64,000 nt of DNA from contig JAJDOK010000073.1 of the NCBI GenBank assembly GCA_022340185.1, positions 45,049 to 109,048 on the forward strand, read 5' to 3'. The notes below the pieces were generated by a model that did not search any database, was not told the origin of the DNA, and saw only the letters and a list, made by a program, of their open reading frames with translations. Origin of the DNA: Salaquimonas sp. (GTDB taxonomy: Bacteria > Pseudomonadota > Alphaproteobacteria > Rhizobiales > Rhizobiaceae). The position numbers and the translations under genes were made by a program. Below, in pieces: positions 3,393 to 56,188 of the stretch. Position 1 is the stretch's first letter, and every line of letters begins with the position of its first letter.

Positions 3393-4685
3393 ATGGATGA
3401 ATTCAGGCACGATTTGTGGCCCGGCCTCGACCGGCGCATCGAGGACATGCGCGGCGAACTGGTCGAACTCACCTGCGCGCTCATCCGCTTTCCGACCGTC
3501 AATCCGCCGGGTGACGCCTACACGCCCTGCGCCGAGTTCATTGCCCGGCGGCTTTTGAACGACGGTTTCGACGTCAAGCTCATTCGCGGTGAAGGCACGC
3601 CGGGTGACAGCGACCGATTTCCGCGCACCAATGTCGTTGCCCGCATCGAGGGCAAACGGTCCGGCCCCACCGTTCACTTTAATTCCCATATCGACGTGGT
3701 GGAAGCAGGCGAAGGCTGGAGCTTCGATCCCTTCGGCGCTGAAATCCGCGATGGCAGGATCTACGGACGCGGCACCTGCGACATGAAGGGAGGACTGGCC
3801 GCCTCCGTCATCGCCGTTGAAGCCTATCTGGCGGCCAATTCCGACTTTCCCGGCGCGATCGAGATTTCCGGCACGGTGGACGAGGAATCCGGCGGCTATG
3901 GCGGTGTCGCCTATCTCGCCGCGCAAGGTCTGTTTTCCAAACCGCGCGTCGATCATGTCATCATCCCCGAACCTCTCAACAAGGATCGCATCTGCCTCGG
4001 CCATCGCGGCGTGTGGTGGGCCGAAATCGAGACGAAAGGCGAGATCGCGCACGGTTCCATGCCGTTCCTGGGCGACTGCGCCGTACGCCATATGGGCGCC
4101 GTACTCGAAGCCTTCGAGCGCGACCTGTTTCCTGCACTCGCCAGGAAGCAGACATCGATGCCGGTCGTGCCCGAGGGTGCGCGGCGCTCGTCCATGAACC
4201 TCAACGCCATCCATGGCGGGCAAACTGACGATTATGCCGGCCTGCCTTCGCCCAATGTTCCCGATTCCTGCCGGCTGACCATCGACCGGCGCTTCCTGAT
4301 CGAGGAAGACCTTGCCGAGGTCAAGCGCGAGGTCGTCGCCATCCTCGAGGGACTGAAGGCGACACGGCCCAAATTTGACTACAACATCCGGGACATAATG
4401 GAAGTGCTGCCGACCATGACGCAGAGGAACGCCCTGGTGGTGGAAGCCGTTGCCGCCGGCATTTCGGAAGTGTTCGGACGTGAACCCGACTACGTCATCT
4501 CGCCCGGCACCTACGACCAGAAGCACATCGCCCGCATCGGCCACCTGCACGACTGCATCGCCTACGGTCCCGGCATCCTCGACCTCGCCCACCGCCCCAA
4601 TGAATTCATCGTCATCGACGACATGGTCGAGAGCGCCCGCGTCATGGCCCGCGCGCTGCATATGCTTTTACACGGCCCCTCCTGA
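3393..4685 (+). CDS. M20 family metallopeptidase (ArgE/DapE-like deacylase)
   Basis: Motifs HIDVVEAGEGW and GRGTCDMKGG. The track ORF starts at GTG 3321. I prefer ATG 3393, which gives about 430 aa, typical for the family. Confidence 0.8.
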   Translation: MDEFRHDLWPGLDRRIEDMRGELVELTCALIRFPTVNPPGDAYTPCAEFIARRLLNDGFDVKLIRGEGTPGDSDRFPRTNVVARIEGKRSGPTVHFNSHIDVVEAGEGWSFDPFGAEIRDGRIYGRGTCDMKGGLAASVIAVEAYLAANSDFPGAIEISGTVDEESGGYGGVAYLAAQGLFSKPRVDHVIIPEPLNKDRICLGHRGVWWAEIETKGEIAHGSMPFLGDCAVRHMGAVLEAFERDLFPALARKQTSMPVVPEGARRSSMNLNAIHGGQTDDYAGLPSPNVPDSCRLTIDRRFLIEEDLAEVKREVVAILEGLKATRPKFDYNIRDIMEVLPTMTQRNALVVEAVAAGISEVFGREPDYVISPGTYDQKHIARIGHLHDCIAYGPGILDLAHRPNEFIVIDDMVESARVMARALHMLLHGPS

Positions 4686-4818: not shown

Positions 4819-6306
4819 ATGAACGCATTCAGGAAGTTCACCGTCGCCACGGCTTTCGGCGCGGTTGCGACCTTCGCATTGCCAGCCCATGCCGCGCGCA
4901 CCGACCTGACCCTCGGCATGGTGCTGGAGCCGCCGCATCTGGACGCGACCGCCGGCGCACCCGCGGCGATCCGCGAAGTCACCTACGCCAACATCTACCA
5001 GGGCCTCACCCGTCTCGATATCGACGGCAAGATGCAGCCCGCGCTCGCCGAAAGCTGGACGATCTCCGACGATGGCAAGGTCTATACCTTCAAGCTGCAT
5101 TCCGGCGTGAAGTTCCACGATGGCACCGATTTCGACGCCAATGACGTCAAGTTCACGCTCGACCGCGACCGCGGCGCCGACTCGACCAATTCGCAGAAGC
5201 AGCTCTTCGCCCATATCACCGATGTCGAGGTCGTCGACCCGTTGACGGTCAGGATCACGCTCGACCAGCCGGTGGGCAATTTCCTCAACGACATGGCCCG
5301 TGGCGAGGCGGTGATCGTCGCGCCGGAATCGGCCGACACCAACAAGGAAACCCCGATCGGCACCGGACCGTTCAAGTTCGATCACTGGGCCAAGGGTTCC
5401 GAGATCACGCTGGTCAGGAACCCCGATTACTGGGGCACGCCGGCGCAGCTCGACAAAGCGGTGTTCCGCATCATTCCCGACGCCGCCGCCGCGGTGCCGG
5501 CACTCCTGTCGGGTGACGTTCAGGCTTTCGCCAACATGCCAGCCGGCGACGCGCTGCCGCAAATCGAGGCCGATCCGCGCTTCAAGGTCGTCATCGGCGC
5601 CACCGAGGGCGAGACGATTCTCGCCATCAACAATGGCAAGCCGCCCTTCGACAATCTGAAAGTGCGCCAGGCGATCTCCTACGCACTCAACCGCAAGGAC
5701 ATCATCGACGGCGCAAGCTCGGGCCTCGGCGTGCCGATCGGTTCACACTTCTCGCCCGCCGACCCCGGCTATGTCGACCTGACCGGCATGTATCCCTTCG
5801 ATCCGGAAAAGGCGAAGGAACTGTTGAAGGAGGCGGGTTACCCCGACGGCTTCAAGGCCACGCTGAAACTGCCGCCGCCGCCCTATGCCCGCCAGGGCGG
5901 TGAGATTATCGCCGCGGAACTGCGCAATATCGGCATCGATGTCGAGATCATCCCGGTCGAATGGGCCGACTGGGTCGCCAATGTCTTTAAACAGAAGGAC
6001 TACGACATGACGATCATCTCGCATGTCGAGCCCAACGACATCGGCATCTATGCCCGCGACGACTATTATTTCGACTACCACAATCCGAAGTTCAACGCGG
6101 TCATGGCCGAACTCGACAAGACGACGGATCAGGCAAAACGCCTGGAGCTTTTGGGCCAGGCGCAGAGGATTCTCGCCGACGACGCCGTCAACGGCTTCCT
6201 GTTCGAACTGCCGAAAGTCGGTGTCTGGGACGCCAAGCTTCAGGGCATGTGGCCCAATTGGCCGATCTTCGCCAACGATCTGTCGGAAGTCTATTGGGAA
6301 GACTGA
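4819..6306 (+). CDS. ABC transporter substrate-binding protein, family 5 (peptide/nickel/opine type)
   Basis: ATG 4819 is preceded by AGGAGG (4804-4809). It has the signal peptide MNAFRKFTVATAFGAVATFALPAHA. The 4450 start in the track is an upstream read-through. Confidence 0.9.
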   Translation: MNAFRKFTVATAFGAVATFALPAHAARTDLTLGMVLEPPHLDATAGAPAAIREVTYANIYQGLTRLDIDGKMQPALAESWTISDDGKVYTFKLHSGVKFHDGTDFDANDVKFTLDRDRGADSTNSQKQLFAHITDVEVVDPLTVRITLDQPVGNFLNDMARGEAVIVAPESADTNKETPIGTGPFKFDHWAKGSEITLVRNPDYWGTPAQLDKAVFRIIPDAAAAVPALLSGDVQAFANMPAGDALPQIEADPRFKVVIGATEGETILAINNGKPPFDNLKVRQAISYALNRKDIIDGASSGLGVPIGSHFSPADPGYVDLTGMYPFDPEKAKELLKEAGYPDGFKATLKLPPPPYARQGGEIIAAELRNIGIDVEIIPVEWADWVANVFKQKDYDMTIISHVEPNDIGIYARDDYYFDYHNPKFNAVMAELDKTTDQAKRLELLGQAQRILADDAVNGFLFELPKVGVWDAKLQGMWPNWPIFANDLSEVYWED

Positions 6307-6425
6307 TCGGCAAGCCTTTCTTGCCCTTTCGGATCGGGTAAAGGCATGGAAGTGACGCATTCGCCCACTTGTCCTCCTCCCCCCTTCGACAAGCTAAGGA
6401 GTGGGGAGGGTAAGGACACAGCCGC

Positions 6426-7373
6426 ATGACCCGCTATGTCCTCAGGCGTCTCGCGATCGGCATCCTCACGCTGGTCTTCGCCTCGGCGGTTGTCTTTTTC
6501 GTCATGGAAATCCTGCCGGGCGACCCTGCCCGGCTGATGCTCGGCCTGAACGCGACCGAAGACGCCATCTCCGCATTGCGCCAGCAGATGGGCCTCGATC
6601 AACCGGTATTCGTCCGCTATCTGGCCTGGATCGGCGGCCTCCTTGTCGGTGACTTCGGCCGCTCCTACACCTATTCGGTACCGGTACTGGAACTGGTGAC
6701 CGAGCGGGCCGCAGTCTCGTTGCCGCTCGCTTTTCTCTCGCTCATCCTGCTGACCGTCATCGCCATTCCGGTCGGACTCTTTGCTGCTGCCCGCCGTGGC
6801 CGCGCCGCCGACGCCATCGTCATGGGCTTGTCCCAGATGGGCGTCGCCATCCCTAATTTCTGGTTCGCTTTGCTGCTTGTCTACTTCTTTGCCGTCTGGC
6901 TGCGATGGGTACCGTCGGGCGGATTTCCGGGCTGGCAGTCCGGTCTGTGGCCGGGCGTCAAGGCGCTCATCATGCCGGCCGTCGCGCTCGCTTTGCCCCA
7001 GGCCGCGATCCTGGCGCGCGTAACCCGTGGCGCGCTGATCGACGTGCTGGGCGAGGACTATATCCGCACCGCCCGCGCCAAGGGCCTGCCGCGCAACCAG
7101 GTGCTGTGGCGCCACGCGCTGCGCAATGCACTCATACCGGTGCTCACCATTCTCGGCCTGCAATTCGCCTTCCTGATCGCCGGCACCATCATCATCGAGA
7201 ACGTGTTCTATCTGCCGGGCCTCGGACGGCTGATCTTCCAGGCGATCACCCAGCGCGACCTCATCGTCGTCGAAAGCGTCGTCATGCTGCTAGTCGCCAG
7301 CGTCATCCTTGTCAATCTCGTCGTCGACCTGTCCTACGCCATCGTTGATCCGCGCCTCAGGGGCGCCAGATGA
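6426..7373 (+). CDS. ABC transporter permease (DppB/OppB-like)
   Basis: 315 aa with multiple TM segments and a family-typical C-terminus, DLSYAIVDPRLR. Confidence 0.9.
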   Translation: MTRYVLRRLAIGILTLVFASAVVFFVMEILPGDPARLMLGLNATEDAISALRQQMGLDQPVFVRYLAWIGGLLVGDFGRSYTYSVPVLELVTERAAVSLPLAFLSLILLTVIAIPVGLFAAARRGRAADAIVMGLSQMGVAIPNFWFALLLVYFFAVWLRWVPSGGFPGWQSGLWPGVKALIMPAVALALPQAAILARVTRGALIDVLGEDYIRTARAKGLPRNQVLWRHALRNALIPVLTILGLQFAFLIAGTIIIENVFYLPGLGRLIFQAITQRDLIVVESVVMLLVASVILVNLVVDLSYAIVDPRLRGAR

Positions 7374-7383
7374 GGACAGGACG

Positions 7384-8256
7384 ATGAGCGACATGTCCGT
7401 CACCTCGGCGCCTTCCGGTACGGCGAGCTTCCTGCGCCGAGCCTTGCGCAACCGTTCTTTCATGGTTGGCCTGGTCATCACGCTTTTCGTAGCGGCCATC
7501 GCACTCCTCTCCTTCGTCTGGACGCCCTACGACATCACGCAATTGCCGGTTTCCGAGCGCATGAAACCGCCCTCGGCTACCCACTGGTTCGGTACGGACC
7601 ATTTCGGCCGCGACATTCTGTCGATGATCATGATCGGCGCGCGCAATTCGATTGCCGTCGCGCTCGTCGCCGTCGGCATCGGCATGGGCATCGGAGTGCC
7701 GCTCGGCACAATTGCCGCCGCACGCGGCGGCTGGCTCGACGAAACGGTAATGCGCTTCAACGACATCATCTTCGCCTTCCCCGCCCTGCTTTCGGCGATC
7801 ATGATCACCGCGATCTTTGGCCCCGGCGCCGTAAATGCCATCGTCGCCATCGGCATTTTCAACATCCCGGTCTTTGCCCGTGTCGCGCGTGCGGGCGCGC
7901 TCGCCCTGTGGCCACGCGAATTCGTCATGGCCGCCCGTGTCGCCGGCAAGGGCGCGGCGCGCATCACGGTCGAGCACATCCTGCCCAACATCGTCAGCCT
8001 GTTGCTCGTGCAGGGCACCATCCAGTTCGCGCTCGGCATCCTGGCGGAAGCCGGCCTCTCCTATGTCGGTCTCGGCGCCCAGCCACCCATGCCGAGTTGG
8101 GGACGCATGCTGTTCGACGCCCAGACGCGCATGATCGTCGCTCCCTATCTGGCGCTGTTTCCGGGTCTGGCCATCGTCATTACCGTGCTTGGCCTCAACC
8201 TGCTCGGCGACGGATTGCGCGATCTACTCGACCCGCGCCTCAACCGGGAGCGCTGA
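7384..8256 (+). CDS. ABC transporter permease (DppC/OppC-like)
   Basis: In-frame ATG 7384 lies just after the upstream stop. It has TM-rich sequence and the C-terminus GDGLRDLLDPRL. Confidence 0.9.
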   Translation: MSDMSVTSAPSGTASFLRRALRNRSFMVGLVITLFVAAIALLSFVWTPYDITQLPVSERMKPPSATHWFGTDHFGRDILSMIMIGARNSIAVALVAVGIGMGIGVPLGTIAAARGGWLDETVMRFNDIIFAFPALLSAIMITAIFGPGAVNAIVAIGIFNIPVFARVARAGALALWPREFVMAARVAGKGAARITVEHILPNIVSLLLVQGTIQFALGILAEAGLSYVGLGAQPPMPSWGRMLFDAQTRMIVAPYLALFPGLAIVITVLGLNLLGDGLRDLLDPRLNRER

Positions 8257-8260
8257 GCAG

Positions 8261-9901
8261 ATGGCGCTTCTTGAAATCGAAAACCTTGGCCTCACCATCG
8301 CGGGCAGGCCCATCCTGCGAGACATCGACCTGACCGTCGAACCGGGCGAGATACTGGGCGTGGTCGGCGAATCGGGTTCCGGCAAGTCGCTGACCGCGCT
8401 GTCGGTCATGCAACTCCTGCCACACCTGTCGGCAACTTCCGGCAGCGTGCGTTTCGACGGCGCCGAACTCCTCGGCGCTTCCGAGCGCGCCATGTGCCAG
8501 TTGCGGGGCGACGATATCGGCATGGTCTTCCAGGAGCCGATGACCGCACTCAATCCGGTCAAGACCATCGGCGAACAGATCGCCGAGGGAATTCGCTGGC
8601 ATGCCCGAGTTCGGGCCCGCGAGGCGCTGGCACGCACCGCCTCGATCATGCAGCGCGTCGGCCTGCCGCCTGCCGACTTCCCGCTGTCGCGGTTTCCGCA
8701 CGAATTGTCCGGCGGCCAGCGCCAGCGTGTCGGCATCGCCATTGCCTGCGCCATGCACCCGCGACTGCTGATTGCCGACGAGCCGACCACGGCGCTGGAC
8801 GTCACCATTCAGGCCCAGATTCTTGACCTTTTGCGCAGCCTGGTGCGCGAAACCGGCATGGCGCTGGTCCTGATCACGCATGACCTCGGCGTCGTTGCCG
8901 ACATGGCCGACCGGATCGCCGTCATGCGCGAAGGGATTGTCGTCGAGGAAGGTTCAACCCTTGATGTGCTGGCCCACAGCCGCCACGCCTATACGCAGCA
9001 ACTGGCGGAAGCTTCCGCTCATGTGCCCGTGCGCCATACACCGCCCGTCCTGACACGCGATGCGCAAGCCAGGAGCGCGAAGCCCCTGCTCTCGGTACGC
9101 GATCTCGTCTGCACCTATCCCCGCTCCCATCGCTATCCCTTCGACCGGCCGGAACCGTTCCAGGCTGTGCGCGGCGTCTCCTTCGATGTGTATTCCGGAC
9201 AGACCATGGCGCTGGTCGGCGAATCGGGTTGCGGGAAATCGACACTGTCGCGCGCCATTCTGGGCCTGCACAGGCCCGCCGGCGGCACGCTTTCCTTCGA
9301 TGGTGTCGATATCGCCGGCGGTGACCACGAACAAATCACCGCCGCGCGCCGCGAAATGCAGATTGTCTTCCAGGACCCTTACGGCTCGTTCAATCCGCGC
9401 CACCGCGTCGCCCGCCTTGTCGCCGAACCGCTGCACCTGCGACCGGAACTGTCAAGCGACGAAAAGCGCCGACGGGTCGAGGAGGCGCTTGACGCCGTCG
9501 GCCTGATGCGCGCCGACATGCACAAATACCCGCATGAATTTTCCGGTGGCCAGCGCCAGCGCCTGGCGATCGCACGCGCCCTCGTTATCCGCCCGAAGCT
9601 GATCATTGCAGACGAACCGGTTTCGGCCCTCGACGTGTCGATCCGAGCCCAGATCCTCGATCTGTTGAGCGAATTGCGCGACCGGCTGCACATCGCCTGC
9701 CTGTTCGTGACGCACGATCTGTCGGTGGTGCGTGCATTCGCCGATGAAGTGCTGGTCATGCGCGCCGGCCGCTTCGTCGAGCACGGTCCGGTCGAAGCGG
9801 TATTCGAACAGCCTGAAAACGCCTATACGCGGCAATTGCTAGGAGCCGCGCCGGATCTTCACCGAACGCTCGCGCGCCTCGGCGAAGACCGCGCTACTTA
9901 G
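8261..9901 (+). CDS. ABC transporter ATP-binding protein, duplicated ATPase (DppD/DppF fusion type)
   Basis: Two Walker A motifs (GESGSGKS, GESGCGKS) and two LSGGQRQR signatures. ATG 8261 lies 2 nt after the permease stop. Confidence 0.9.
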   Translation: MALLEIENLGLTIAGRPILRDIDLTVEPGEILGVVGESGSGKSLTALSVMQLLPHLSATSGSVRFDGAELLGASERAMCQLRGDDIGMVFQEPMTALNPVKTIGEQIAEGIRWHARVRAREALARTASIMQRVGLPPADFPLSRFPHELSGGQRQRVGIAIACAMHPRLLIADEPTTALDVTIQAQILDLLRSLVRETGMALVLITHDLGVVADMADRIAVMREGIVVEEGSTLDVLAHSRHAYTQQLAEASAHVPVRHTPPVLTRDAQARSAKPLLSVRDLVCTYPRSHRYPFDRPEPFQAVRGVSFDVYSGQTMALVGESGCGKSTLSRAILGLHRPAGGTLSFDGVDIAGGDHEQITAARREMQIVFQDPYGSFNPRHRVARLVAEPLHLRPELSSDEKRRRVEEALDAVGLMRADMHKYPHEFSGGQRQRLAIARALVIRPKLIIADEPVSALDVSIRAQILDLLSELRDRLHIACLFVTHDLSVVRAFADEVLVMRAGRFVEHGPVEAVFEQPENAYTRQLLGAAPDLHRTLARLGEDRAT

Positions 9902-25876: not shown

Positions 25877-26863
25877 ATGACCCACACCATCGTCGCCTCC
25901 GAAAAACGCGAAGTCGTCATCGGCTTTGACAAGCCGTTCTGCGTGATCGGCGAACGCATCAACCCGACCGGCCGCAAGAAGCTCGCCGCCGAAATGATCG
26001 GGGGCAATTTCGAGACGGTGGAGAAGGATGCGCTGGAACAGGTCGCAGCCGGCGCGGCCGTACTCGACGTCAATGCCGGCGTCACCGCCGTCAACCCGAA
26101 CGAGACCGAGCCGCCGCTGCTGGTCAAGACCATCGAGATCGTGCAGGGCCTTGTCGACGTGCCGATCTCCATCGATTCTTCCGTCACCGCCGCGATCGAG
26201 GCGGGCCTGAAGGTCGCCAAGGGCCGCCCGCTGGTCAATTCCGTCACCGGCGAACTTGAAAAGCTCGAGACGATCCTGCCGCTGATCAAGAAATACGACG
26301 TGCCCGTCGTCGCCATCTCCAACGACGAGACCGGCATCTCGATGGACCCAGACGTGCGCTTCGCCGTCGCAAAGAAGATCGTCGAACACGCCGCCGATTA
26401 CGGCATCAAGCCGCACGACATCATCGTCGACCCGCTGGTCATGCCGATCGGAGCGCTGGGTGACGCCGGCCGGCAGGTCTTCGCGCTGGTGCGCCGCCTG
26501 CGCGAGGAATTGAAGGTCAACACGACCTGCGGCCTGTCCAACATCTCCTTCGGCCTGCCGCACCGCCACGGCATCAACGCCGCCTTCATTCCGATGGTCA
26601 TCGCTTCGGGCATGACGTCGGCGATCATGAACCCCTGCCGCCCGCAGGAGATGGAAGCGGTGCACGGCGCCAATGTGCTGAACGGCACCGACGAGAATTG
26701 CGCCACCTGGATTATGAAATACCGCGACCATGTCGCACCCCAGGGCACCATGCCCTCAACGCTCGGCGGCGCATCGCACCCGAAGATCCAGCCCGGCTCC
26801 AATCCGGCCACGCGTTCCGGCCGCCGCGGCGGCAGGGCCGCCAGAGTGGGTTCGGGGGGTTAA
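25877..26863 (+). CDS. methyltetrahydrofolate:corrinoid methyltransferase (pterin-binding domain, MeTr/AcsE/MtrH-like)
   Basis: 328 aa with a pterin-binding barrel pattern (GERINPTGRKK, LDVNAG, NSV, SNISFGLP). RG-rich C-terminal tail. Confidence 0.85.
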   Translation: MTHTIVASEKREVVIGFDKPFCVIGERINPTGRKKLAAEMIGGNFETVEKDALEQVAAGAAVLDVNAGVTAVNPNETEPPLLVKTIEIVQGLVDVPISIDSSVTAAIEAGLKVAKGRPLVNSVTGELEKLETILPLIKKYDVPVVAISNDETGISMDPDVRFAVAKKIVEHAADYGIKPHDIIVDPLVMPIGALGDAGRQVFALVRRLREELKVNTTCGLSNISFGLPHRHGINAAFIPMVIASGMTSAIMNPCRPQEMEAVHGANVLNGTDENCATWIMKYRDHVAPQGTMPSTLGGASHPKIQPGSNPATRSGRRGGRAARVGSGG

Positions 26864-26873
26864 AGGAGCTAAT

Positions 26874-27377
26874 TTGCCCTTCGATCCAAGTCAGCACCAC
26901 CTGAACTCTTCCTTGAGGGAGAACATCATTGAGCATCTCTTCATTGGAGAGATGCTTAAGTTGTTGTGGCGGAGGGGGGTAACCGATTGCGAGATTCTCA
27001 AGTCAGAATTTGATGGCTACGGCTACGACCTCGTGGTTAGCGTCGGCAAACTGACGCGGCACCTCCAAATGAAGTCGGGCAACAAGAATCCGACTCGAGT
27101 TTCCGTCAATTTGTCACTTGCGGCCAAACAGAGTGGTTGCGTGCTGTTCGTGGTCGTCAACGACGATCTGGAATTCGTTCGCTTCTTTTGGCTTGGCGAT
27201 GAACCCGGAGCACCACTTCCGGACATCAAGAGTAAATCTATCGCCAAGCGTACTACTCGAAACAAGCAGGGAGATAGGCCCGAAAGGGAAAATCATCGCG
27301 AATTGAAAAGAATTGATTTCACTGAACTTTCCTCATTTGAAGAAGTCGTAGACGAACTGGTTGGCCTACATGCCTGA
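26874..27377 (+). CDS. hypothetical PD-(D/E)xK (restriction-endonuclease-like fold) protein, low-GC insertion
   Basis: The TTG at 26874 is in frame with track ORF 26730, 6 nt after AAGGAG (26862-26867). Motif string: E..IEHLF...EFDGYGYDLVV...RHLQMKS. Lower GC than its neighbours. Confidence 0.5.
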   Translation: MPFDPSQHHLNSSLRENIIEHLFIGEMLKLLWRRGVTDCEILKSEFDGYGYDLVVSVGKLTRHLQMKSGNKNPTRVSVNLSLAAKQSGCVLFVVVNDDLEFVRFFWLGDEPGAPLPDIKSKSIAKRTTRNKQGDRPERENHRELKRIDFTELSSFEEVVDELVGLHA

Positions 27378-29415
27378 CTCCAACCCCCTCGTCCTGTTCA
27401 TGCCGTCAGGCAGGCGCGGGCATTTTCCTAAGGGCACGCCGGTGCTCGACGCCGCGCGCCAGCTCGGCGTCTATGTCGAGAGCGTATGCGGCGGGCGCGG
27501 CATTTGCGGGCGCTGCCAGATCGAGGTGCAGGAAGGCCAGTTCGCCAAGCACAAGATCACCTCTTCGAACGACCACATCTCCGCGCCTGGCCCGAAGGAA
27601 TTGCGCTATGCCGAAAAGCGTGAATTGAAGCCCGGCCGGCGCTTGTCATGCTCGGCGACGATCCAGGGCGATCTCGTCATCGACGTGCCGCAGGACACCG
27701 TCGTTAACGCCCAGATCGTGCGGAAGGCCGCCACCACGCGGCTGATCGAGCGCAACGCCGCCGTGCGCCTTTGTTACGTCGAGGTCGACGAACCCGACAT
27801 GCACAAACCGCTCGGCGATCTCGACCGCATCAAGGCCGCGCTGAAGCGCGAATGGGGCTACGAGACTCTGGAGGTCGATTTCCGCCTGCTGCCACGCGTC
27901 CAGAAGATCCTGCGCGACGGCGAATGGGCCGTCACCGCCGCCATCCACCACGACCGCGAAACCGGCACGCCGCACATCATCGATCTGTGGCCCGGGCTGC
28001 ACAACGCGGCCTGGGGCATCGCCTGCGACATCGGCTCGACCACCATTGCCATGCACCTGGTCTCGCTGCTGTCGGGCCGCGTCGTCGCTTCATCGGGCAC
28101 GCCCAACCCGCAGATCCGCTTTGGCGAAGACCTGATGAGCCGCGTCTCCTACGTGATGATGAACCCGGACGGCGCGGAAAAGATGACCGCCGCCGTGCGC
28201 GAAGCGATCAACGAGCTGATCGGCAAGGTCTGCGGCGAGGTCAATGTCCACGAGAGCGACATTCTCGACCTCGTCTTTGTCGGCAATCCGGTGATGCACC
28301 ACCTCTTCCTCGGCATCGACCCGACGGAACTGGGCGGCGCGCCCTTCGCGCTGGCCGTCTCCGGCGCCGTGCATCTAAACGCCGCCGAACTGGATCTGCG
28401 GGCCAATGCTGGCGCGCGTGTCTATGTCCTGCCCTGCATCGCCGGCCATGTCGGCGCCGATTCGGCCGCCGCCACCCTGTCGGAAGGCCCCTACCGCCAG
28501 GACGAGATGATGCTGCTCGTCGATGTCGGCACCAATGCCGAGATCGTGCTGGGCAACAGGGAACGCGTCGTCGCCTGTTCCTCGCCCACCGGCCCGGCCT
28601 TCGAGGGCGCAGAGATTTCCGGCGGCCAGCGCGCCGCGCCGGGCGCCATCGAGCGCGTAAGGATCGACCCGGAAACACTCGAACCGCGCTACCGCGTGAT
28701 CGGCTCGGAACTCTGGTCGGACGGGCCGGGTTTCGACGAAGCCACAAAGGAAGTCGGCGTCACCGGTATCTGCGGTTCCGGCATCATCGAGGTGATCGCC
28801 GAGATGTTCCTGGCCGGCATCATCTCCGTCGACGGGGTCATCGACGGTTCATTGGCCGAAAAAAGCCCGCGCATCGTCGCGTCGGGCCGCACCTTCTCCT
28901 ATGTGCTGAAGCATGGCGAACCCGCCATCACCATTACCCAGAACGACGTGCGCGCCATCCAGCTTGCCAAGGCCGCGCTTTATGCCGGCGTCAAACTGCT
29001 GATGGCCAAGCAGGAGGTCGACCATGTCGACCTGATCCGCCTCGCCGGCGCCTTCGGCTCCTATATCGATCCGAAATACGCCATGGTGCTGGGCCTCATC
29101 CCCGATTGCGATTTGGATAAGGTCAAGGCCGTCGGCAACGCCGCCGGCGACGGTGCGCTCATGGCATTGCTCAACCGCGGCTATCGTCGCGAGATCGAGG
29201 AGACGGTCAGGACGATCCACAAGGTGGAAACCGCGCTGGAACCCGATTTCCAGCGCCTGTTCGTCGACGCCATGGCCTTCCCCAACAAGACCGATCCCTT
29301 CCCGAAATTGTCGGCGGCAGTCAAACTGCCTGAACCGAAAGCGCTGGTCGGCGCAGGCAACGGCGAAAACCGCGGCGCCGACAATGGCAGACGGCGCAGA
29401 AGGCGTCCGCGCTAG
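27370..29415 (+). CDS. corrinoid reductive activase (RACE/RamA-like; N-terminal 2Fe-2S ferredoxin plus ASKHA ATPase domain)
   Basis: CGGRGICGRCQ plant-type 2Fe-2S motif. The large ASKHA/DUF4445-like body begins DIGSTTIAMH. ATG 27370 (track TTG 27361) overlaps the upstream ORF by 8 nt. Confidence 0.85.
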   Translation: MPDSNPLVLFMPSGRRGHFPKGTPVLDAARQLGVYVESVCGGRGICGRCQIEVQEGQFAKHKITSSNDHISAPGPKELRYAEKRELKPGRRLSCSATIQGDLVIDVPQDTVVNAQIVRKAATTRLIERNAAVRLCYVEVDEPDMHKPLGDLDRIKAALKREWGYETLEVDFRLLPRVQKILRDGEWAVTAAIHHDRETGTPHIIDLWPGLHNAAWGIACDIGSTTIAMHLVSLLSGRVVASSGTPNPQIRFGEDLMSRVSYVMMNPDGAEKMTAAVREAINELIGKVCGEVNVHESDILDLVFVGNPVMHHLFLGIDPTELGGAPFALAVSGAVHLNAAELDLRANAGARVYVLPCIAGHVGADSAAATLSEGPYRQDEMMLLVDVGTNAEIVLGNRERVVACSSPTGPAFEGAEISGGQRAAPGAIERVRIDPETLEPRYRVIGSELWSDGPGFDEATKEVGVTGICGSGIIEVIAEMFLAGIISVDGVIDGSLAEKSPRIVASGRTFSYVLKHGEPAITITQNDVRAIQLAKAALYAGVKLLMAKQEVDHVDLIRLAGAFGSYIDPKYAMVLGLIPDCDLDKVKAVGNAAGDGALMALLNRGYRREIEETVRTIHKVETALEPDFQRLFVDAMAFPNKTDPFPKLSAAVKLPEPKALVGAGNGENRGADNGRRRRRRPR

Positions 29416-29555
29416 CTTCTTGGGGCGGCCTTTCCGCTCGCGATTTGTTCATTGATGCCGCCGCTTTGCGGGGTTTGGAGCAAGAACGATTTGATATGAT
29501 CCCAGGATCGGTAATAATCGATACGGAAATTTATCGAATTGTCCGGGAGGGAAAT

Positions 29556-30053
29556 ATGAACCGTTTCACCTTTTTCATTTGTATAACAATAACTTGTACC
29601 GCAACCCCTGCTGCGGCCGCAACAACAAGCCTCTGTACGTCGGGTGAAGCTGAAATCTTCAATGCGACACTGAAGGGAACCGGTGAAATCGTATCGGTAT
29701 GCGCCAACAGCACCGACAAGGCCAAATGGCTGCAGTTCCGGATGGGCGAGGCCGGGAAGGTGGAAATGATATTTCCCAAAAAACATTCAGGCTCGCTGAA
29801 GAAGTTCGTCCTCCGCCGCTACACGCGACCGCAGACCACCTATCTGAAGCTCGAATTCGATGACAACGGCAAGAATTACGCGATCTTCGAATCGTTCGAC
29901 GCGATGGAGAGCCCGCGTGAAGCCTCGAGCTTGCGCATCCGCTCGCTTGCCGATGGTCACGACATTTCCGAAACCGACCTTGAACGCACCAGCGAGCCGC
30001 TCAACCTCATGCGCCTAGAAGACCAGGTGAAGACCGGAGAATTCGACGAATAG
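29556..30053 (+). CDS. hypothetical secreted protein (lower GC)
   Basis: GGGAGG lies 5 nt upstream of ATG 29556. It has a signal peptide MNRFTFFICITITCTATPAAA and two Cys residues in the mature N-terminus. Confidence 0.5.
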   Translation: MNRFTFFICITITCTATPAAAATTSLCTSGEAEIFNATLKGTGEIVSVCANSTDKAKWLQFRMGEAGKVEMIFPKKHSGSLKKFVLRRYTRPQTTYLKLEFDDNGKNYAIFESFDAMESPREASSLRIRSLADGHDISETDLERTSEPLNLMRLEDQVKTGEFDE

Positions 30054-55150: not shown

Positions 55151-56188
55151 CTATCCAACGCGGATGCGCGGGTTGAGGAAGGCGTAGCCGATATCGGAAA
55201 TGAGCTGCGTGAGCAGCACGATCAGCACCGAAATCAGTCCGCAAGAAAGCAGCAGGTCGATATCGTTATTGGATGCCGCCTGCACCAGTAGCCAGCCGAA
55301 TCCCTTGTAGTTGAAGATGGATTCGGTCACGACGACACCGGTCAGAAGCCACGGGAACTGCAGCATGATGACGGTAAACGGCGCGATCAGGGCGTTGCGC
55401 AGCGCGTGCTTCATGACGACGGCGCCGAAACTGAGCCCCTTCAACCGCGCGGTTCGGATATATTGCTGCGTCATCACCTCGACCATGGAGGCGCGCGTCA
55501 TGCGCGCAATATAGCCCGTGCCGTAGATCGCCATGGTCAGGACCGGCAGGGTGAAATTGTAGAGACTGATGCCCCTTCTGGCCGCAGTCGCCGCCGAACC
55601 GTTGAGCCAGCCGAGCCACGAAGCGAAGATAATGGTGAGGATGATGCCCGAAACATATTCAGGCGTTGCCGTCGAACCTATCGAGGTGACCGACAGGGTC
55701 CGGTCGGTACGGCTGCCCTCCCGCATGCCGGCGAGCACACCGATCGTCAGCGACACCGGCACCATGACCAGCATCACCCAGAACATTAATAGCCCGGTTG
55801 CCTTGAGAGCCTGTGGCAGGCGTTGCGAAACCGGGGTCCTGAATGCGGTCGAACAGCCGAAGTCGCCTTCCAGGATTCCCGAATAGGTAGGCACAACCGG
55901 TTCATCGCAGAAGCGGAACCGCGGCACCGGTTCTCCCGTCTTCGGGTCGATCACCGGTACTTTGGGCCACACGCCCATCCAGCGGCCGAACTGCACGAGG
56001 TAGTTGTCGCGATAGCCGTTGCGTTGAAGCCAGTTTTCCTTGTCCTGGTCGCTGGCGCGCATCTCCGTCTGGAACGTGGCCAGCTTCCTCAGGTTTGGTT
56101 CCAGATTGACGAAAAAGAACACCACGAAGCTGAGACACAGCATCGTGAGCAGCATCACGCCAAGCCGCCGAAGAAAGAATGTGAACAT
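55151..56188 (-). CDS. ABC transporter permease (DppB/OppB-like)
   Basis: 345 aa with the C-terminus DIGYAFLNPRIR. Confidence 0.9.
   Translation of the reverse strand: MFTFFLRRLGVMLLTMLCLSFVVFFFVNLEPNLRKLATFQTEMRASDQDKENWLQRNGYRDNYLVQFGRWMGVWPKVPVIDPKTGEPVPRFRFCDEPVVPTYSGILEGDFGCSTAFRTPVSQRLPQALKATGLLMFWVMLVMVPVSLTIGVLAGMREGSRTDRTLSVTSIGSTATPEYVSGIILTIIFASWLGWLNGSAATAARRGISLYNFTLPVLTMAIYGTGYIARMTRASMVEVMTQQYIRTARLKGLSFGAVVMKHALRNALIAPFTVIMLQFPWLLTGVVVTESIFNYKGFGWLLVQAASNNDIDLLLSCGLISVLIVLLTQLISDIGYAFLNPRIRVG

Follow-up and report, generated by a model that had tools for sequence, protein, structure and literature searches.

The homing endonuclease I-Ssp6803I, a small stand-alone protein with the PD-(D/E)xK fold (ca. 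150 to 170 amino acids [aa]), is the product of a gene within a group I intron, which itself lies in a cyanobacterial tRNA gene (PMC3384342). DREN, the DUF4365 nuclease of the SPARDA short-Argonaute defense system, consists of a minimal PD-(D/E)xK core and must oligomerize to be active, and its tetramer resembles that of I-Ssp6803I (bioRxiv 10.1101/2025.04.08.647717). The homing genes of the seg and mob types in T-even phages are single co-oriented open reading frames (ORFs) that are positioned between conserved genes and distributed patchily among relatives (PMC2988022, PMC2790892). Here, a 64,000-nucleotide (nt) stretch of DNA from Salaquimonas sp. (contig JAJDOK010000073.1, positions 45,049 to 109,048 of the forward strand), referred to below as the window, was analyzed. 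It contains an ORF for a predicted PD-(D/E)xK nuclease between the genes of a corrinoid methyltransferase (MeTr) and a corrinoid activase of the RACo type. The comparisons suggest that this ORF is a horizontally exchanged single-gene conflict nuclease, serving in defense or addiction, which a general hot spot carries as its cargo; we put the probability of this reading at about 45%.

The junction comprises the following features.

Positions 25877 to 26863, plus strand: MeTr, the methyl-tetrahydrofolate (THF):corrinoid methyltransferase gene, upstream flank (Pfam PF00809 Pterin_bind, E of 3e-28).
Positions 26862 to 26867, plus strand: Shine-Dalgarno sequence AAGGAG, read from the sequence; it overlaps the MeTr stop codon, and the TTG start follows 6 nt downstream.
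Positions 26874 to 27377, plus strand: nuclease ORF with a TTG start, 167 codons and the stop codon TGA (27375 to 27377); this is the entire inserted cassette.
Positions 27370 to 29415, plus strand: RACo-type corrinoid activase gene, downstream flank (Pfam RACo_C_ter, Raco_middle, RACo_linker and Fer2).
Positions 27385 to 27411, plus strand: conserved block at the 5' end of RACo (..PLVLFMPSG..), taken from junction alignments; it begins just past the right edge of the insert.

The stop codon of MeTr is a TAA at positions 26861 to 26863, and the ATG of RACo at position 27370 overlaps the 3' end of the nuclease ORF by 8 nt. This layout had been given in the same form by the first-pass annotation, a model's reading of the letters alone, and was confirmed in all its parts. 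The TTG start is favored over an in-frame upstream ATG (position 26730) by the N termini of homologs (M-FDxxQH). The MeTr protein is 77 to 94% identical to 80 orthologs. Junction alignments revealed that the insert consists of the ORF plus at most 12 nt, with no space for additional genes. As the first-pass annotation had stated, mobility genes and terminal repeats are missing: no direct or inverted repeats were found to flank the ORF, and neither a transposase or integrase gene nor a second copy of the nuclease gene was found in the window. An insertion sequence or transposon was rejected for these reasons. A consensus promoter of the sigma-70 type was not detected at the slot by simple scans, and the sole terminator-like site that they found within the ORF was a near-perfect palindrome (positions 26929 to 26959; 31 nt, 15-nt arms, 1-nt loop, RNA fold of -18.6 kcal/mol). 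This palindrome was rejected as a regulatory or recognition element because it is not kept in homologs, and it is probably incidental.

The ORF product is predicted to be a nuclease of the PD-(D/E)xK fold with a complete E...D...QxK site. The AlphaFold model, generated from a 21-sequence alignment, reached a mean pLDDT of 90.6 and a pTM of 0.83. It displays helices at residues 6 to 33 and 80 to 84 and strands at residues 39 to 43, 53 to 57, 60 to 69, and 88 to 95, so that the alpha-beta-beta-beta-alpha-beta core of the superfamily is present. Searching the Protein Data Bank (PDB) with Foldseek returned PD-(D/E)xK nucleases for all top 50 matches. The best of these were SPARDA DREN, Hjc, I-Ssp6803I, EcoRV, HincII, and DpnI, with probabilities of 0.97 to 1.0 for the best and modest E values (2e-3 to 5e-2). 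The restriction-endonuclease-like fold that had been proposed from the order of sequence elements is thus supported by the predicted structure. The peptides on which that proposal was based (ENIIEHLF, EFDGYGYDLVV, and RHLQMKS) are all found in the translation, and their assignment to the motif was correct: the helix Glu corresponds to E20, the Asp of YDLV to D52, and the Q-x-K to Q65 and K67. Within the ORF, two parts can be distinguished.

Positions 26931 to 27074, plus strand: catalytic core codons, E20 (26931 to 26933), D52 (27027 to 27029), Q65 (27066 to 27068), and K67 (27072 to 27074).
Positions 27174 to 27374, plus strand: variable basic C-terminal part, approximately residues 101 to 167, defined from the alignment, with conserved G133, R138, and R142.

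E20, D52, Q65, and K67 are invariant in the 21 aligned homologs, and the model places E20 in helix 1, D52 at the start of strand 2, and Q65 and K67 on strand 3, which are the canonical positions. H21, E40, D47, R62, C89, and R138 are likewise invariant in this alignment. The C-terminal third is basic, as had been noted before, and it is the less conserved part of the gene: among the copies in the MeTr|RACo slot, nucleotide identity is 0.40 to 0.59 in the 3' half versus 0.71 to 0.76 in the 5' half. The variable C-terminal region may set the substrate choice.

Comparison with family models placed the protein outside the described families. The family profile aligns YDLV...QlKS with YDLV...VQVKSS of I-Ssp6803I (PDB entry 2ost), although this match is weak (E of 0.065). 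PF11645 (PDDEXK_5) is matched by 10 of the 21 homologs (best E of 1.1e-6); the window protein itself gave no match to this model at an E of ≤1 and did not reach the gathering cutoff of 26.1 bits. The larger relatives tested score 18 to 22 bits, under the same cutoff. Since the window protein falls short of the model, the most fitting description of the family, from these sequence scores, is that of a distinct relative of PDDEXK_5 and not of a member. Neither the window protein nor any of the 21 homologs matched DUF4365 in Pfam. The likeness to DUF4365 and Hjc-type nucleases, which the first-pass annotation had pointed out, is supported; for DUF4365, it is a likeness of structure only. Scans of the window protein against Pfam, NCBIfam, PADLOC, and PHROGs gave no match even at lenient E values, and a PDB search with the single window sequence gave none either.

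Among the structural relatives, I-Ssp6803I is similar in size, and its YDLV Asp and Q-x-K (VQVKSS) align with those of the window protein (Foldseek probability of 0.91 to 0.99, 16 to 22% identity). In contrast to I-Ssp6803I, the nuclease gene described here is free-standing between protein-coding genes, and its product has an additional conserved basic C-terminal part. DREN was the top structural match (PDB entries 9qcc and 9jsz); unlike DREN, the window nuclease stands alone, without a fused APAZ domain or an Argonaute partner. Archaeal Hjc has the same core fold and size (target-normalized TM-score of 0.5 to 0.55), but identity is only 10 to 15%, Pfam Hjc is not matched, the host is a bacterium, and the foreign composition and the patchy, locus-hopping spread are unlike those of a housekeeping resolvase. 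The restriction endonucleases DpnI, EcoRV, and HincII have the PD-(D/E)xK core in common with the window protein (Foldseek E of 0.02 to 0.05), whereas the window nuclease has no identifiable reader or recognition domain, no adjacent methyltransferase, and no PADLOC or NCBIfam match. Type IV restriction enzymes likewise function from a single gene, with no methyltransferase.

The nuclease gene is compositionally foreign and sharply bounded. The low G+C content that had been counted by hand in the first-pass annotation was also seen over the whole ORF, with a value of 0.496 versus a mean of 0.619 across the window (standard deviation of 0.031, z = -3.9). In 200-nt windows, the G+C content is 0.48 to 0.52 in the ORF and 0.62 to 0.69 in the flanks. 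The ORF is the lowest-G+C stretch of 504 nt in the 64 kb; 0.06% of all 504-nt windows are equally low, and all of these overlap the ORF. The G+C content at third codon positions (GC3) is 0.58 in the ORF versus 0.87 in MeTr and 0.84 in RACo, and it is 0.53 to 0.60 in every slot copy, against comparison values of 0.76 to 0.92.

To determine how the MeTr|RACo junction is organized in relatives, 80 orthologous loci were fetched from species-representative genomes via the MeTr protein, and 78 of these hold both MeTr and RACo. In the 78 genomes, the length of the slot was taken as the interval between the stop codon of MeTr and the start codon of RACo, and the contents of the slot were then classified as follows.

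Empty slot of 18 to 43 nt: 17 of 78 genomes.
Spacer of 77 to 320 nt with no recognizable gene: 15 of 78 genomes.
Small protein "c1" of 110 to 156 aa with native G+C content: 35 of 78 genomes, 5 of which also have a membrane protein.
BrnT/BrnA toxin-antitoxin (TA) pair: 6 of 78 genomes, one of which also has DUF4160 and DUF2442.
Single cases (glycosyltransferase, membrane proteins, unclassified insert): 4 of 78 genomes.
Nuclease: 1 of 78 genomes (Neorhizobium lilium, locus L060).

The c1 protein has no Pfam match and is found in L018, L020, L033, and 32 other loci (e.g., L048, positions 5991 to 6461). About 10 other Neorhizobium genomes have an empty junction, and N. vignae carries BrnT/BrnA. 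Examination of the contigs of homologs added more nuclease genes that occupy this slot, in Kumtagia ephedrae, in a Mesorhizobium metagenome-assembled genome, and at L009, L182, L184, L187, and L116. The inserts of the slot copies begin 4 to 12 nt past the upstream stop and end at the first RACo codons, either within them or shortly ahead of them, directly in front of the conserved block CCCCTCGTCCTsTTCATGCC. The overlap with RACo is an ATGA in Kumtagia, Mesorhizobium, and L116. With the exception of L009, all slot copies with a known downstream gene abut RACo directly. The order at L184 is MeTr, c1, nuclease, RACo. At L009 (positions 8001 to 8981), the nuclease ORF is continued in the same frame by the N-terminal half of brnA, which is followed by an orphan DUF2442 gene; this fusion is direct evidence of successive replacement events that left relics of earlier slot occupants. 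The L187 copy (positions 4001 to 4603) is frameshifted near codon 105, with the remainder continuing in another frame, which reflects either decay to a pseudogene or an error of the draft assembly. A search of the 78 gaps for decayed nuclease remnants, using a profile hidden Markov model and six-frame translations, found none beyond the known copies. These results demonstrate that the MeTr|RACo junction is a general hypervariable slot and that the nuclease gene is not a conserved part of the corrinoid operon.

The census bears on the suggestion that the ORF has been domesticated. According to this explanation, the product is a host protein, either an Hjc-like nuclease of repair or recombination or a nucleic-acid-binding regulator of the corrinoid operon; the latter had been listed as a possibility in the first-pass annotation. 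The Hjc-like fold, the position in register with the operon, with translation coupled to that of RACo in several genera, and purifying selection would agree with such a function. However, the nuclease is present in a single one of the sampled operon-bearing genomes, codon usage is foreign in every copy, sister clades are found at unrelated junctions, and family members are carried on plasmids and beside integrases. The patchy distribution disfavors the regulator in particular, and we regard domestication as the least probable of the explanations considered. A role of the nuclease in the corrinoid operon is unlikely.

The BrnT/BrnA cassettes of the same slot are also short, lie below their flanks in G+C content, and lack mobility genes. 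They differ from the nuclease cassette in that they consist of two genes, an RNase toxin and an RHH antitoxin, while the nuclease has no partner gene. Their presence raises the question of whether the nuclease is itself a toxin-like addiction gene that stabilizes the acquired cassette, with an RNA, a host factor, or tight repression as the antidote. Sharing a slot with bona fide type II TA modules, the fusion to a brnA remnant at L009, and the small size, foreign origin, and patchy distribution known from TA cassettes are in line with this idea. It is nevertheless improbable, because the ORF fills the whole gap and no partner ORF is present between MeTr and RACo, a conserved antisense promoter or structured RNA could not be found, the internal palindrome is not kept in other copies, and solitary copies persist under purifying selection without a conserved neighbor.

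Family searches placed the ORF in a large set of related proteins. A word-indexed search returned 20 homologs with 39 to 55% identity (E of 1e-24 to 3e-48), and an exhaustive profile search returned 1,493 representatives of 50%-identity clusters at an E of ≤0.001, of which 345 reached an E of ≤1e-30; the ORF is therefore not a chance reading frame. Named relatives are annotated as "hypothetical protein," except for one UniRef entry designated "PD(D/E)XK endonuclease." Because synonymous sites in the slot clade are saturated, the ratio of nonsynonymous to synonymous substitution rates (dN/dS) was taken from L005 and L186, a pair of the sister clade with a common locus. The nuclease dN/dS of this pair is 0.07, its dN is 4 to 8 times that of the neighboring genes, and its divergence at four-fold sites equals that of the neighbors. 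These values show that the family encodes a functional, fast-evolving protein, with the sister clade under purifying selection.

A neighbor-joining tree built from 101 distinct sequences groups every MeTr|RACo copy into one clade and the copies at ArgJ and GatC into another low-G+C clade. Neither this deep, locus-specific clade of slot copies nor the hypervariability of the slot had been noticed in the first-pass annotation. The grouping of clades by locus indicates that lineages are bound to their loci and that locus switches are rare. The first-pass annotation had asked whether the ORF also appears at non-homologous loci, and related copies were found there: relatives that are ca. 47 to 54% identical occupy the ArgJ|NUDIX junction in Asticcacaulis, where the nuclease and NUDIX genes overlap by an ATGA, and the Lactamase_B|GatC junction in Rhizobium sp. 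Leaf68 and one relative. On metagenomic contigs, copies follow directly after uvrB or ftsK. No common sequence motif was found at the edges of wedge copies from different loci. Other subfamilies, among them those described below with an adjoining tyrosine recombinase gene, a C-terminal extension, or fused domains, have native G+C content.

The slot copies differ in their history from the genes that surround them. Amino acid identity among them is 48 to 69% for the ORF, 82 to 96% for MeTr, and 74 to 87% for RACo, and differences at four-fold sites amount to 0.64 to 0.82 (saturated) for the ORF versus 0.24 to 0.50 for the flanks. The corresponding values of L005/L186, which served as the control pair, are similar (0.44 for the ORF and 0.33 to 0.43 for the flanks). 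A two-fold faster silent rate of the ORF would predict only ca. 0.43 for the least diverged host pairs. The saturation of the ORF relative to its flanks thus indicates ORF alleles that are older than the divergence of the surrounding genes, and such old alleles would fit lateral exchange or a long-lived polymorphism at the slot. A single ancestral insertion followed by vertical descent alone does not fit the divergence at four-fold sites. Identity profiles change sharply at both ORF edges, with no gradient, and jump to 0.82 to 0.92 on the RACo side. No imported flanks were seen in N. lilium, where the flanks are closest to those of other Neorhizobium. A tree of six slot copies is strongly star-like and only partly congruent with the host tree, and the distances are uncorrelated when the window copy is left out (r = 0.07).

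Members of the family were found mostly on mobile elements. A family member is carried by 45 plasmids, 22 of which are conjugative, and these copies lie in accessory regions, in contexts that include HNH, ImmA/IrrE, and a multiubiquitin/E2/ThiF set. The family is also present on nine IMG/VR contigs, on which phage structural genes occur, and no family match was found in 50,697 deposited phage records. A census of 114 immediate neighbors revealed six tyrosine recombinases, a TIR protein, a KAP NTPase, a reverse transcriptase, DNA methyltransferases, DndB, UzuA, and PD-T4-3. Apart from an integrase in one subfamily, no neighbor is conserved across the family loci. The nuclease domain also occurs fused to ADP-ribosylglycohydrolase, REase-ARP, and DUF6508 domains (P0081, P0047, and P0102), which are typical of conflict systems.

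Further arrangements were seen in individual subfamilies. In L109, L134, L136, and L150, the family member overlaps a gene for a tyrosine recombinase of ca. 318 aa by an ATGA, and a conserved palindrome, TGATAA-N6-TTATCA, lies ca. 40 to 60 nt upstream of the nuclease start; it may serve a mobile module of two genes as an operator or recombination site. A variant of 317 to 320 aa with a C-terminal extension of ca. 150 aa that has no Pfam match is present at L120, L126, L133, L140, L147, L157, L160, and L179. At L158 (positions 1142 to 1726) and L164, a second, different PD-(D/E)xK-like gene (..SVSIQVKS..) is located immediately downstream and overlaps the family member by 20 nt.

The distribution and history of the copies can also be read as the work of a homing-like endonuclease. 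The free-standing enzyme would cut the nuclease-free MeTr|RACo junction or the adjacent RACo 5' block, and repair would copy the ORF into the cut allele; an empty allele would meet a carrier allele after conjugation, transduction, or delivery by gene transfer agents. The genome-level behavior of the seg and mob genes is like that of the nuclease cassette, although those genes encode GIY-YIG or HNH enzymes in phage genomes, while a PD-(D/E)xK enzyme in a bacterial chromosome is concerned here and no co-conversion tract is seen. Several observations speak for homing. The nearest sequence relative of known function is the PD-(D/E)xK homing endonuclease I-Ssp6803I, which is similar in size and has the unusual QxK as well. 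The insert is exactly one co-oriented ORF between conserved genes with an overlapping stop and start, the clades are bound to the MeTr|RACo, ArgJ|NUDIX, and Lactamase_B|GatC loci, and presence varies within one genus, in which N. lilium is occupied and ca. 10 Neorhizobium genomes are empty. The ORF alleles are far older than their sharply bounded flanks, the frameshifted L187 copy is what a homing cycle predicts, and, except at L009, the right edge is constantly at the conserved RACo 5' block.

Other results weigh against homing. The slot also takes BrnTA, DUF4160/DUF2442, membrane protein, and glycosyltransferase genes, for which no DNA nuclease of the cassette is needed. The conserved RACo block does not differ consistently between carriers and non-carriers, and empty alleles have intergenic spacers that vary from genus to genus, so that neither offers a candidate cleavage site. 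The flanks show no co-conversion gradient, with hosts too diverged to exclude short tracts. The ORF may follow another occupant, as at L184, or stand apart from RACo, as at L009. The family is unmatched in the deposited phage records, and many relatives are located beside integrases or defense genes instead of being wedged between conserved genes. We therefore consider it rather doubtful, though less so than addiction or domestication, that these proteins constitute the first PD-(D/E)xK family of homing endonucleases that are free-standing and colonize operon junctions of bacterial chromosomes with locus-specific lineages. Such lineages would be those at MeTr|RACo, at ArgJ|NUDIX, at Lactamase_B|GatC, and after uvrB or ftsK, with delivery possibly by conjugation or by alphaproteobacterial gene transfer agents.

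We return to the reading of the ORF as a conflict nuclease carried by a hot spot. Because the slot also accepts cassettes that encode no DNA nuclease, the location is explained by the site and not by the cargo. The association of the wider family with mobile elements and conflict systems also speaks for this reading. The ORF would have been acquired horizontally as a single-gene cassette in the hypervariable slot just upstream of the RACo start, and the cassette probably spread among Rhizobiales via recombination in the conserved flanks. The nuclease would be transcribed by read-through of the operon and translated from its own AAGGAG and TTG, and ribosomes may be handed to RACo via the overlapping stop and start. 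By analogy with I-Ssp6803I, DREN, and Hjc, the nuclease may oligomerize and cut DNA in a metal-dependent manner. Its target could then be phage or plasmid DNA that enters the cell, with the nuclease as a lone effector of a restriction-like or abortive kind, or the nuclease could act as an addiction gene in the manner of BrnTA. In a speculative variant of the defense reading, self-protection is provided in trans by a housekeeping methyltransferase such as CcrM.

Several points weigh against the conflict nuclease reading. Many of the 114 neighbors are housekeeping genes (FtsK, UvrB, ArgJ, and HSP70), so that the defense-island signal is mixed. The PADLOC-DB v2 defense models gave no match to the window protein at an E of ≤10. 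With 167 aa, the protein has no recognizable sensor or reader domain, which leaves the sparing of host DNA unexplained. Recombination in the flanks predicts an imported flank next to the ORF; none is visible, the edges are sharp, and the flanks in N. lilium look native. Part of the low G+C content could stem from weak selection on a rapidly evolving gene instead of recent import.

The family is an unnamed branch of a well-known superfamily, and selfish cassettes between core genes are already known. It is widespread, occurring on plasmids, prophage-like contigs, and chromosomes, yet no Pfam, NCBIfam, PADLOC, or PHROG model matches the window protein. The combination of properties is unusual: a solitary 167-aa PD-(D/E)xK gene without a mobility gene or repeat, an insertion compatible with the operon, a deep locus-specific clade, and documented empty and alternative states of the slot. 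The locus bears on how selfish cassettes of one or two genes enter tight operon junctions without disruption and on whether homing-type endonucleases work in bacterial chromosomes outside introns and inteins. A demonstration of homing in a bacterial chromosome would make the finding considerably more interesting, and a true solitary defense nuclease would extend the known defense repertoire by a single-gene system of very small size. For annotation, the nuclease gene should not be counted in the corrinoid methyl-transfer pathway.

Two minor observations were made elsewhere in the window. The only other stretch with a G+C content of ≤0.52 (positions 29380 to 29995) is located directly 3' of RACo and corresponds to an ORF on the plus strand (positions 29445 to 30053), so that RACo is bracketed by two low-G+C inserts, this ORF and the nuclease ORF. 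It encodes 202 aa with a probable signal peptide from an internal Met; no Pfam match and no homolog in any fetched locus were found. Positions 55396 to 55579 on the plus strand match the Rfam model of the Cis52 small RNA (RF02647) with 60.7 bits, compared with a gathering score of 56.

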